Shown here one piece after another: positions 15,001 to 18,000 of a stretch of DNA of 25,186 nucleotides. This stretch comes from a virus (Duplodnaviria > Heunggongvirae > Uroviricota > Caudoviricetes). A program made the position numbers. The stretch's first letter is position 1. Each line of letters begins with the position of its first letter. The DNA lies in IMG/VR virus record IMGVR_UViG_2563366883_000011; one strand, 5' to 3'.

Positions 15001-18000
15001 CTTTCCACGACCATATAGGTGGTGAGACGTACAGGGGTGGAAATACCGGTCAACATAGAACCCGGCCCAACCGAAGTTGGCCCTGCACGCCCCACCATAA
15101 TTTGGGCGTAACGATGCTCATGACACGAAAAAACCGCATGAGCGCGGTTGTGCTCTATATTGAATTTCGGGTTTCCACGCCCGGCACCCGCTTTATAAGG
15201 TGCCGGAACAGTGTAACGTCCCGGAATTGCAGAATCAATATGCTGGTGGTCCTTCACACTCAACAAAATCACGCCTGAATTTCCACAAAGGACTAAAGCA
15301 CTCATGCGGGTAGTCTTTGCGAAGATAGATAACGCGCTGTGTTTCTGGCTCCCAACGAATAACATGGACATAAAGCCCTCTTCCGTCACGAAACCAGCGG
15401 TTAAGTTCCTGCACAACTCGCCCCCCACAGTCAGGTAAAGTTCTCTGTGGTTACTTACAGCCAGGTGATTTGGTAATCTGCATTCATGCCGTAACAACAG
15501 GTGTTCAGCGACGCTGACCACCAGCTGTTGCGACAAACGGTTATTTGCCGTTAAACTATTCATGCGTTAGTTTCTCCACAACCAGAAGCAATCGACGCCA
15601 CGACGCCCGGAGCTGCACACTCGCGGGCGTTACTATTTTCTGGAGCGCAGAAGATTTTGTAGACCAGTGCTGCATGCTCCTGGAGCTTCGAAATTGAAAG
15701 ATACAGTTCGTCGTTAATTGCTGTCTTCTCATGCGGTTCCACTACACCGTCTTCGATTGCTGAACGAATCTGTCTGGAATAACCGCCGATCTGTTCAATG
15801 ACTTCCAGCAGGCGCTGGTTTATATCGGCGTTCTCTACTGCCTCAATTTCAGGAAGCGATACGAACACCCCACCAGCAGACTGTGCGACAGCATCCGCAA
15901 TGTAGTGAGTGCCAGCCGCACGCTGTAAAACCATTGCCCATCCCAGCGGGAAAATCTGATCGCCATCTGCACGAAGGCGGTTGAATAAAGCGTTCTCTGT
16001 TACATCCAGCCAGTCAGCAGCTTCAGCGTAACCCCCAGGCAATGCCGCGATAGTTTTTCTGACAGCTTTCACGTACCACTCAGGTTGTTTTTCCACTTTC
16101 CAGTGATGCTTACCCACGGCTTACCTCCTGTTCCTGTGGTTTAAACCCATTCTGGTTTTGGCTAGATTGAAAACGTGCCGGATAAAGAATCTGCATTTCG
16201 CTGATTTCACCCTTAAAAAAATTGGCCAGACGTTCTGCAAGATCGATAGATGGAATTTGTTCCAGTCTTTCAATACGACTCAGCGTCGCTGGATTGACCT
16301 GAACGCCCGCAGCAACATGCTGCAAAGTAAATCCGTGCGCCTTACGCACATTCCGTAATGGTGATTGCATATAACCTCCACATATTGCGTGATGAGCATA
16401 TTATTTCACGCAAATATTTTGCGCAAGTTGATTTGCTTAACGCGCAATAAAGAAATGTAATAAACGCATGAACATAGGAAATCGAGTCAGACAACTTCGC
16501 CAGGCGAAGAACATGAAAATCGCCGATCTCGCTGAAGCAATAGGAGTGGATGCGGCGAATATCTCGCGCCTCGAAACAGGTAAGCAGAAACAATTCACTG
16601 AACAAGCCCTGAGTAATATTGCCAGGAGCTTAGGTGTTGATATTGCTGATCTCTTTACCTCAGACCTCAAAAGTAATACTGTATGTAAAAACAGTATTAG
16701 TGAGGATGTTGCGCAGGTGAAGGATGTATTCCGTATTGAAATGCTGGATGTCAGTGCCAGTGCGGGAAATGGCCTTATCCAGGGCGGTGATGTCATTGAT
16801 GTGATTCATGCCATTGAATACAGAACTGATAATGCTGTATCGATGTTTGGTGGACGACCAGCAAATCACATTAAAGTTATCAACGTTCGTGGGGACAGTA
16901 TGTGTCCAACCATTGAGCCAGGAGATCTCATCTTCGTTGATATCAGTATCAATCAGTTTGATGGGGATGGTATCTATGTGTTTGGTTTTGATGATAAAAT
17001 TTATGTCAAACGACTGCAAATGATACCTGACAAACTACTGGTAATTTCTGATAACCAGATTTACCGTGAATGGGGAATTACCAGCGAAAATGAACACCGG
17101 TTTATGGTCTTTGGAAAGGTCTTAATCAGCCAGTCACAAACCCTTAAGCGACACAATTAACCCTTACCTCCTCATCAATTAGCCACCCGAAGGTGGCTTT
17201 TCATTACTCATCAAATTGCATATCTCGCAACAAAAATACTTGCATAATGCGCAACTTCATTTTATCTTTCTTTCCAGACCAACAAACAAGGTACTAACAA
17301 AATTTGGTTGTAACACGGCGTATGGCACATGCGTCGTTAGCGGTCTGGGGACGTTAAAGGAGACAATCCACTCCTTGCTCGGGCAAACAAACCAGGTAGC
17401 CGGAATGTGCAAGTCAATGATGATGCTGATAAGACGCCTAACCAGCGTGGCGATTCGGTTTGACGCCTGGGAAGAGACCAGGGTGCAACGATGAGGGCAT
17501 TTATGGAACCGCGACAAAGTGTGGTGCCGTAACTGGCTAAGTGCTCTCAGTGTTGTGGTGAAGGCGCAGGCTGATGCGCGAAAGACATTGCAGCTATTGC
17601 GGAAAAGAGCTGTTCGGCGGGGCAATTAAACGCCCGTGAGAGTCTGAAATAACCGCAAGCCGGAGATCAGCACCGGTCACCACAACAGCCACTGCTTTGG
17701 CGGTACCAGTTTGTACACTTGCTTCCGGCTGGTACCGCTCTTTTTACAAAACAGAGAAGAGCATCACCGGACGACGGGCTCATAACCCAATCCATCCGGG
17801 CGGCTGCCACCGCAGGTGTTCTTCTCTGTTTTGTGGGGAAACCAACCGACCTTGCAGGGTCGATATGATGAGGAGCAGCAAAATGGCTAGCGAACGTAGT
17901 ACTGATGTGCAGGCATTTATCGGGGAGCTGGACGGCGGCGTATTTGAAACCAAAATCGGAGCTGTTCTCAGTGAAGTCGCTTCCGGTGTGATGAACACGA

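Follow-up and report, generated by a model that had tools for sequence, protein, structure and literature searches.

Several described systems come close to the locus considered here. The put RNA of the lambdoid phage HK022 is approximately 70 nucleotides (nt) long, consists of two stem-loops and acts in cis on RNA polymerase, through the zinc-binding domain of the beta' subunit, without protein factors. In the N leader of phage lambda, an RNase III site lies in a long duplex just before the first ribosome-binding site (RBS), while the T4 species 1 and 2 RNAs and the ROOL and GOLLD RNAs are structured phage RNAs encoded beside tRNA genes, with which they are probably co-processed. Here, we describe the early-left leader of a lambdoid prophage on a 25,186-nt stretch of viral DNA (IMG/VR record IMGVR_UViG_2563366883_000011; this whole stretch is called the window) and, in particular, a structured RNA of this leader, element A, which lies between the cI repressor gene and the first early-left gene, yfdP. 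An earlier note on this DNA, made from the sequence alone, had described the leader as lacking an N-type gene and had proposed antitermination through a host factor or an RNA (HK022 put-like), or a small RNA (sRNA) encoded by the leader.

The arrangement recalls HK022 put in that an RNA stands just past the left promoter (pL) of a lambdoid phage without N, upstream of terminators that have to be passed, and a cis-acting, protein-independent action is conceivable for A as well. However, at about 240 nt, A is approximately three times larger than put, with five helices, two candidate pseudoknots and a long closing helix. It is present once in the window, 40 nt after the putative pL start, whereas put has a second copy behind the right promoter (pR), and it also occurs beside tRNAs in P1-like and epsilon15-like phages. 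BLAST comparison of A with the HK022 immunity region yielded only chance matches of 8–10 nt, and a covariance model of A (R1) found nothing there. Assignment of A to the put family was therefore rejected on size, fold, sequence and copy number, and the put-like proposal does not survive in the sense of membership, as neither similarity to putL or putR nor a second copy was detected. The logic of A resembles that of HK022 put; its sequence and fold are unrelated. With the lambda nutL–N leader, the locus would share an antitermination site, and it has a long hairpin before the first RBS and an operon ending in xis and int; unlike lambda, it has no N, no boxB and no conserved boxA, and an sRNA and a strong terminator are interposed. 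Like the T4 RNAs and ROOL/GOLLD, A can be a structured, function-unassigned RNA directly beside phage tRNA genes, but it has no sequence or structural relation to them and no Rfam match, and its main context is the pL leader. That this phage group lacks N was already remarked upon in a 2025 genome paper on a related phage, whose authors guessed at a put-like mechanism.

The fold and conservation of element A

The gap of approximately 720 nt between cI and yfdP (17161–17882), in which the Prokaryotic Genome Annotation Pipeline (PGAP) placed no features, is very probably a noncoding-RNA cassette following the left operators (OL) and pL, rather than a passive mRNA leader. The leader as a whole has a folding z-score of −4.27, and conserved RNA modules make up the greater part of it. 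BLAST searches characterized the gap as a mosaic of conserved noncoding modules, in which a segment of approximately 245 nt corresponding to A recurs at 72–82% identity in unrelated phages. Through an exact 17-mer scan of IMG/VR, we collected at least 120 loci, which were reduced to 110 unique copies of A and then to 46 representatives with less than 93% identity. A structure of five nested helices and two pseudoknots was derived from an alignment of 45 sequences (A2) and then tested.

In this alignment, invariant blocks alternate with helices that change by compensation. Across the 37 pairs and 7 helices of the fold, 95.2% of cells are paired, compared with 26–46% when the partners are slid; 14 pairs have changed on both sides (95 cells), and the observed values were reached by none of 500 shuffles. 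For instance, 26 sequences have A:U at the P1 pair 40:52 and 19 have G:C, and P4 occurs as ACGA/TCGT, GGGA/TCCC, AGGA/TCCT, ACGC/GCGT and TTGA/TCAA. In pseudoknot 2, AACC loops always accompany GGTT and CACC loops always accompany GGTG (C:G in 40 sequences, A:U in 5). Pseudoknot 1 is invariant, so that covariation neither supports nor contradicts it; a second viral scan with another motif recovered near-identical cores only, with no more than three single-base variants of the invariant 19-mer, and offered no covariation test for this pairing. Because the copies were collected by exact motifs, the apparent invariance of those motifs is inflated. The closing helix P6 is a duplex of approximately 18–20 bp with compensatory variants, amounting to −24 to −31 kcal/mol in most representatives and enclosing an insert of 0–90 nt. 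The fold is rich in G:U pairs; read on the opposite strand, these would become A:C mismatches, and the structure is therefore specific to the plus strand. A 5' closing helix of the core, pairing GGUUG with CAAC, was dropped because the alignment gives it no support. Model R1 scores the window copy at 156.5 bits (E = 1e-47). Conserved structure in the leader had been named in the earlier note as a point to check, and the covarying fold of A provides it.

None of the 4227 Rfam 15 models matched A at gathering thresholds, with only noise at E values up to 10. Among 30 listed occurrences of A in complete Escherichia coli genomes, the only features annotated under it are an adjoining tRNA-Arg and one hypothetical protein, and a full-text literature search for the invariant motif returned no relevant paper. 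With no Rfam family and no annotation, element A appears undescribed.

sRNA-17 and the terminator before yfdP

Directly beyond A lies element B, which is sRNA-17, a 193-nt RNA of Escherichia coli K1 RS218 defined by rapid amplification of cDNA ends (RACE) and Northern blotting (PMC7719688). This identity rests on the published full-length and RACE primers and the Northern probe, which map onto the window with a few substitutions: the 5' primer reads CGTTGTGGTGAATGCGCAGG, the 3' primer corresponds to the terminator in reverse complement, and the probe to 17613–17662. The suggestion that the leader may encode a small RNA was thus correct, and a larger conserved RNA precedes that sRNA; sRNA-17 itself was already known, and A upstream of it is the new part. 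The 3' end of sRNA-17 is the terminator at 17699–17745, from which it follows that termination at 17745 occurs in vivo. Its 5' end (~17551) is the first nucleotide of the B closing helix and falls within the 3' strand of P6, so that it looks like a processing site at the P6/B junction. Song et al. used window positions 17301–17555 as the "promoter of sRNA-17" in electrophoretic mobility shift assays (EMSA) and treated this fragment as a promoter and ArcA site (PMC7719688), while their quantitative reverse-transcription PCR (qRT-PCR) amplicon runs from 17301 into B, implying co-transcription of A and B.

B is a recurrent cassette in its own right. The copy in phage P1, at 94.6% identity, follows directly after trnA and trnT, and in IME207, B stands just ahead of two tRNAs. 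The 31 unique copies of B share one plan, comprising a closing helix (GUUGUGGUG with CACCACAAC), AAU ahead of a 5' hairpin that covaries, a middle part that varies, a 3' hairpin set directly against the closing strand and, after a linker, a terminator of the form GGCGG...CCGCC-CUUUUUACA with a covarying stem. This plan resembles that of STnc100, an sRNA recently tied to PasD, in the closing helix (..UGGUG with CACCA..), AAU with the 5' hairpin, the variable middle, the 3' hairpin and the terminator; the position differs, as B sits in the early-left leader and the STnc100 copies in the late leader. The SfV variant of B aligns to the full Rfam STnc100 model (RF02076) at 39.5 bits (E = 1.7e-7; gathering threshold 47 bits), and the motif CACCGGGAGGCACCCGGCACCA is identical in the SfV and ST64B variants of B and in the two true STnc100 copies of the window. 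The window's own B has the STnc100 architecture, judged by alignment and by eye, and gave no Rfam match at E values up to 10, falling short of the 47-bit threshold for membership; it is therefore called an apparent, diverged STnc100-type sRNA and not a member of the family.

Several further observations concern these sRNAs. Two tandem full-length STnc100 copies (6892–7101 and 7379–7584, minus strand) occupy the late leader, just downstream of the Q-like gene, with an AsxR match beside them (6836–6888, plus strand), so that the late leader is also a series of sRNAs and terminators, parallel to the early-left leader. An IMG/VR contig (L080, ~8500) carries a truncated B followed by the start of an SfV orf33-type open reading frame (ORF), which suggests recombination between leader types. 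Phage P1 contains both modules in unannotated gaps (L262, 1501–1649; L005, 1501–1685), with B approximately 70 nt after trnA–trnT and A 1 nt after trnI, upstream of ban.

The cassette terminator consists of a stem of 10–13 bp followed by UCUUUUU; it qualifies as an intrinsic terminator, and its stem covaries across the family. The terminator-like hairpin reported earlier at 17701–17746 is thereby a real terminator, in an inferred role a gate before the early-left genes. The same terminator family (GGCGG...CCGC and UCUUUUU) follows B or tRNA-Arg in other phages, as it does tRNA-Arg in phiV10; A is followed by either B or tRNA-Arg, and then by this same covarying terminator family. In SfV, SfII, SfIV and ST64B, the terminator, the next 90 nt and the start of yfdP form a conserved block. 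The boxA-like motif of the earlier note, CGCTCTTTTTA, turned out to be the tail of the terminator U tract: SfV reads CCGTCCTTTTTACAA and ST64B CCGACCTTTTTACAC, so that its letters are not under selection. A perfect boxA occurs downstream of A in just one of 110 variants, and a boxA at the terminator was rejected as a coincidental look of letters that the closest relatives do not conserve. An RfaH ops-like reading of the 5' terminator arm (GGCGGU..) was likewise dropped, given that GGCGG alone is conserved. As separate observations, many cassettes (e.g., SfV and L017; also L037, L105 and L261) carry the linker GCUGUGUGUAGUC(U/C)UGGCGG before the terminator, where window positions 17688–17699 read CAGCCACUGCUUUGGCGG, and the terminator base GGCGG and the tail CUUUUUACA(G/A) are invariant and more conserved than terminator function needs.

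Between the terminator and yfdP, hairpin C folds with a z-score of −4.77, is conserved in SfV, SfII and ST64B, and shows G:C to A:U compensation in ST64B; by analogy with the lambda N leader, it is probably an RNase III site. The next convincing gene begins at 17883, as had been claimed; this is yfdP, with a Shine–Dalgarno (SD) sequence and nothing annotated before it.

The claim that the leader lacks an Arg-rich N-type ORF also held. PHROG comparison of the window's proteins identified no N-family protein, either in the leader or from int to Q, and the first gene product, YfdP, is not Arg-rich. The 24-codon GTG ORF that had been put forward as the best N candidate is present and encodes the basic peptide VKAQADARKTLQLLRKRAVRRGN, but it is unconserved and not a gene: its length and sequence differ from one B copy to another, a covarying RNA hairpin makes up its first 8 codons, and compensatory substitutions in its 5' part alter codons. 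SfV-type leaders carry a 99-aa acidic orf33 (L261, 1089–1385) where the window has A, and this ORF was rejected as an N analogue because its product is acidic and not Arg-rich. A nut site was not found in the leader, whose sole boxA-like string is the terminator tail, and no repeat is common to the left and right early operons of the window. As cro overlaps ymfL, there is no intergenic room for nutR or putR behind pR.

Genomic contexts of the cassette

Of 5426 complete E. coli genomes, 1833 carry element A, with 1914 places on chromosomes and 554 on plasmids. Its observed taxonomic range is the Enterobacteriaceae, including Escherichia, Shigella, Salmonella, Klebsiella, Enterobacter and Kosakonia; in a 14-mer scan of genome contigs, in which 100 of 120 loci were tested with the model, Kosakonia sacchari alone was genuine among those tested, and the scan otherwise gave chance matches from unrelated phyla. 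For 57 of 101 analysable copies, the nearest upstream neighbour is a same-strand cI-like repressor ORF approximately 175–200 nt before the invariant motif, and these copies are pL leaders. In mEp390, A lies directly behind the repressor gene and starts approximately 50 nt past a TTGACA-18-TACATT promoter, and in some relatives, P1 starts approximately 10 nt past the −10 hexamer. The genes downstream of A are heterogeneous, so that A has no fixed protein partner; pL operons with A carry at least five unrelated downstream gene sets, none with an N-type protein.

Other copies are linked to tRNA genes. In P1, P7, D6 and other P1-like phage-plasmids, A lies between trnI and ban, and in epsilon15-like Uetakeviruses (phiV10, SPN1S, Tyrion and a Klebsiella phage), it lies just upstream of tRNA-Arg or a moron gene. 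Among 130 copies, tRNA-Arg(UCU) begins directly past P6 in 29, and in 17 of P1 type, A begins 1 nt after tRNA-Ile2(CAU). Across three phage lineages, A and B are thus mobile RNA cassettes that trade places with, or lie next to, tRNAs for the rare codons AGA and AUA. With filters off, model R1 found no second copy of A in the window, and it found none in the early regions of HK022, SfII, SfV and ST64B.

Individual variants of A show additional features. T-arm-like strings (GGTTCAATTCC and GGTTCGATTCC) occur in the P6 insert at L008 ~1330–1420 (SPN1S) and L105 ~3700–3790; they may be tRNA remnants or tRNA-like cargo, and ARAGORN called no tRNA there. In a few variants (L090 ~3360–3400, L034, L047 and L256), an A-rich hairpin and GCUCUUUAA come immediately after the A core. 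In L090, the string TGCTCTTTAACAA equals the rrn boxA consensus and could be a terminator tail or a true Nus-factor site linked to A.

At the upstream end of the leader, the earlier note had described two perfect operators after the cI terminator, overlapping a plausible pL, and all of these are present, at most 1–2 nt from where they had been placed. The exact pattern TTGC-N7-GCAA occurs three times in the 25-kb window, always flanking cI, twice in OL and once in the right operator region (OR; 16433–16447), against an estimated chance expectation of fewer than one exact match. With one mismatch allowed, 18 matches were found against 18.7 expected, which is chance level; one of them (16385–16399) also lies within OR. 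The putative pL matches the consensus at just 7 of 12 positions and is missing from the promoter-scan list, and related immunity regions repeat its geometry of an operator half-site as −35, 17 nt and TATCTT. Transcription from it would start near 17275.

The window is an E. coli lambdoid prophage of the mEp460/SfV/cdtI type with 100% identity to a prophage in strain CP55_Sichuan, and it spans the complete early region from int to Q (Table 1). The rightward operon on the minus strand comprises cro, a cII-like ymfL, a Rha-type regulator, replication genes, nin-type genes and a Q-like antiterminator. The early-left operon on the plus strand comprises yfdP, yfdQ, yfdR, a gene resembling phosphoadenosine phosphosulfate (PAPS) reductase, several function-unassigned genes, xis and int. 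Each early operon contains one gene matching phrog_33262 (PAPS reductase-like), at 19791–20669 (plus; residues 2–279) and 11771–12457 (minus; residues 283–492), a pattern that resembles a split or duplicated DNA-modification gene. The Rha-family regulator ORF (383 aa, 14412–15563) has PHROG matches that begin only at residues 61–106, and its start may be over-called. Inside this ORF, on the minus strand, lie Rfam matches to the C4 antisense RNA (15015–15102, 82 bits) and IsrK (15127–15203, 62 bits); the pR operon may harbour a P1/P7 immI-like module for RNA-based immunity. In 2007, Roberts, Allison and Verma reportedly described termination-mediated immunity in SfV as an RNA-based second system, which probably concerns a pR region of the C4/IsrK type and not the early-left leader.

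Table 1. Coordinates of the leader modules and neighbouring genes in the window.
Feature	Position	Strand	Description
Element A	17316-17557	plus	~240 nt; structured RNA family without Rfam match
A core	17316-17485	plus	45-sequence alignment and covariance model
P1 hairpin of A	17316-36
P2 helix of A	17340-48 with 17392-17400
Invariant 19-mer of A	17395-17413		GGTAGCCGGAATGTGCAAG
3-bp junction helix of A	17413-15 with 17449-51
P4 of A	17434-48
P5 of A	17464-85
Candidate pseudoknot 1 of A	17325-30 with 17405-10		GCACAU with AUGUGC; invariant
Candidate pseudoknot 2 of A	17440-43 with 17457-60		P4 loop with downstream strand; covarying
Closing helix P6 of A	17485-17502 with 17539-17556 (element part 17485-17557)		encloses variable insert; candidate processing site
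Element B = sRNA-17 (193 nt)	17551-17744	plus	primers and probe of Song et al. 2020, Table S2
B closing helix	17551-61 with 17677-87
B 5' hairpin	17563-79
B 3' hairpin	17659-76
24-codon GTG ORF	17558-17629	plus	rejected as gene
Cassette intrinsic terminator	17699-17745	plus	GGCGGTACCAG (17699-17709) with CTGGTACCGC (17729-17738), then TCTTTTT
Hairpin C	17746-17834 (arms 17746-70 and 17810-34; ~25 bp)	plus	5' untranslated region of yfdP; inverted repeat
Small hairpin	17847-62	plus	leader region 17847-17882
SD of yfdP	17870-75	plus	GAGGAG
yfdP	17883-18245	plus	first gene of early-left operon
xis	23612-23866	plus	near operon end
int	from 23900	plus	with xis, last genes of early-left operon
Intrinsic terminator of cI transcript	17181-17198	plus	AGCCACCCGAAGGTGGCT, then T run
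OL operator 1	17216-17230		TTGCATATCTCGCAA; exact TTGC-N7-GCAA
OL operator 2	17240-17254		TTGCATAATGCGCAA; exact TTGC-N7-GCAA; left half is -35 of pL
Putative pL	17240-17268	plus	-35 TTGCAT (17240-45), 17-nt spacer, -10 TATCTT (17263-68); read from sequence
cI-like S24 repressor gene	16468-17160	plus
cro-like gene	16110-16370	minus	rightward operon
Q-like antiterminator gene	8138-8545	minus	rightward operon

A proposed cis-acting role for element A and its alternatives

Our favoured explanation combines the cassette with A as a cis-acting antiterminator that lets polymerase from pL pass the terminator, and we put its probability at roughly 0.4. Upon loss of the repressor, polymerase would start at pL (~17275) and first make the compact, pseudoknotted RNA A, then B, and would next meet the intrinsic terminator of B at 17699–17745. 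Transcripts stopping there would form a precursor of approximately 470 nt, to be cut at the junction of P6 and the B closing helix into A and sRNA-17. Polymerases that read through would transcribe the 25-bp hairpin C, a candidate RNase III site, followed by yfdP, yfdQ and yfdR, and continue to xis and int. The terminator would thereby gate the whole early-left operon, and prophage excision would need its passage: with xis and int at the far end, induction needs polymerases that get past it. A is favoured as the cis device because it would be transcribed before any other RNA, varies very little in its core and occupies the place of nutL or putL. The early-left operon offers no protein candidate for antitermination. 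Furthermore, Q followed by two STnc100 copies before the lysis genes indicates that an sRNA and terminator overcome by antitermination already belong to the design of this phage. Taken alone, the proposal that A acts in cis like put to make polymerase resistant to terminators or Rho is speculative and falls somewhat short of even odds.

A number of results weigh against this explanation. Considered alone, A has a thermodynamic z-score of −1.32, which is not significant, so that the structural evidence for A is comparative, and its structure was tested on the same sequences and alignment from which it was derived. The same terminator, hairpin and yfdP occur without A in SfV, SfII and ST64B, together with xis and int where the stretch examined extends to them (SfII), and A is therefore not generally required to pass this terminator. 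Unlike put, A has one copy and none behind pR. In addition, precise junctions with adjoining tRNA genes are seen in 46 of 130 copies, and in P1, A stands mid-operon with no terminator downstream; a co-processed stable RNA acting in trans would account equally well for these tRNA junctions and for the P1 position. The phiV10 arrangement, with a tandem pair of terminators behind A and tRNA-Arg, looks like a self-contained small-RNA unit. Finally, sRNA-17 accumulates, and termination at 17745 must accordingly be substantial.

These points lead to the strongest alternative, in which A is a trans-acting stable RNA, co-transcribed and co-processed with tRNA-Arg, tRNA-Ile2 and sRNA-17-type RNAs, that would serve, for instance, as a decoy for or an inhibitor of some conserved host or defence target; the terminator would be leaky or handled otherwise, and the position behind pL would simply give immediate-early expression. 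We regard such a role as about equally likely as the put-like cis role. The junctions with tRNA-Arg(UCU) and tRNA-Ile2 speak for it, as do the tRNA linkage of B in P1 and IME207, the variants with a terminator-like hairpin directly after the A core, and the phages that keep the same terminator without A; the invariant 19-mer suggests binding of a conserved partner. However, the literature reports no stable A species, no target is known, a trans-acting RNA does not need the strong preference of A for first place in pL transcripts, and same-strand genes follow A in most contexts examined.

A less probable alternative, which we consider unlikely, is that A belongs to an ordinary attenuated leader and has no specific activity, serving the downstream sRNA or tRNA as a scaffold for folding, processing or stability or as structural Rho-proofing, with the early-left genes expressed by passive, partial read-through. 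The highly structured nature of the whole leader, the RNase III-like P6 duplex at the exact A/B junction and the relatives that manage with the same terminator without A are consistent with this; it leaves unexplained the near-invariant single-stranded stretches, the two candidate pseudoknots and the fact that three unrelated phage lineages and one third of complete E. coli genomes have kept A.

The published view, in which the A region is the DNA promoter and ArcA-binding region of sRNA-17 as an independent gene, has in its favour the EMSA fragment and the 5' end mapped at ~17551. Nevertheless, the region is conserved at the RNA level, with compensatory pairs and strand-specific G:U pairing, and A recurs before tRNA-Arg and behind tRNA-Ile without sRNA-17. 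The published qRT-PCR amplicon spans A and B, and the 5' end falls on the first nucleotide of the B closing helix inside P6, as processing predicts. This view is therefore quite improbable.

Protein genes in the gap, such as a minus-strand 122-aa ORF (mEp460 gp37) or the ORF at 17719–17868, are a still more distant prospect. The mEp460 and cdtI records annotate such ORFs, and two of them, outside A, match the PHROG families phrog_33599 and phrog_3651, of unknown function; these matches cover the conserved hairpin or run antisense to yfdP, and the families probably consist of mis-called ORFs. Against such genes, PGAP calls none of them, and the two ORFs overlapping A match no PHROG family. The A alignment shows no codon periodicity or third-position bias (column entropy by phase 0.52, 0.56 and 0.57), stops interrupt all minus-strand frames of the A core in 17 of 46 representatives, and indels have non-triplet lengths. 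Lastly, a lambda-type N/nut or rrn-type boxA system, with CGCTCTTTTTA as boxA and a small Arg-rich peptide or a distant N, is largely refuted: the likeness of CGCUCUUUUUACAA to boxA, the basic character of VKAQADARKTLQLLRKRAVRRGN and a P5 loop (GAAGAGA) that starts like the lambda nutL boxB loop are set against boxA letters that belong to a U tract and are unconserved in SfV and ST64B, an unconserved 24-codon ORF, no N from int to Q and no space for nutR.

For the question of how N-less lambdoid phages other than HK022 pass their early terminators, A offers a concrete and sharply defined object: it has a covariation-supported fold at the start of the pL transcript and lies upstream of a terminator with experimental support, in an operon that ends in xis and int. 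Tentatively, A may represent a new class of nascent-RNA regulator, a double-pseudoknotted antiterminator or anti-Rho RNA of approximately 240 nt unrelated to put. If so, A would drive transcription of N-less lambdoid, P1-like and epsilon15-like phages through tRNA genes, sRNA genes and terminators. The alternative is equally novel, as A would then be a tRNA-linked phage RNA that neutralizes a conserved host or defence component. Given that the "promoter" of sRNA-17 is a structured RNA, this virulence-associated sRNA is probably a processing product of the pL transcript, which affects the reading of its ArcA regulation and deletion phenotypes. Whichever role applies, about one third of sequenced E. 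coli carry A, a functional RNA that is abundant yet unannotated, and it adds a common RNA family to what genome annotation misses.

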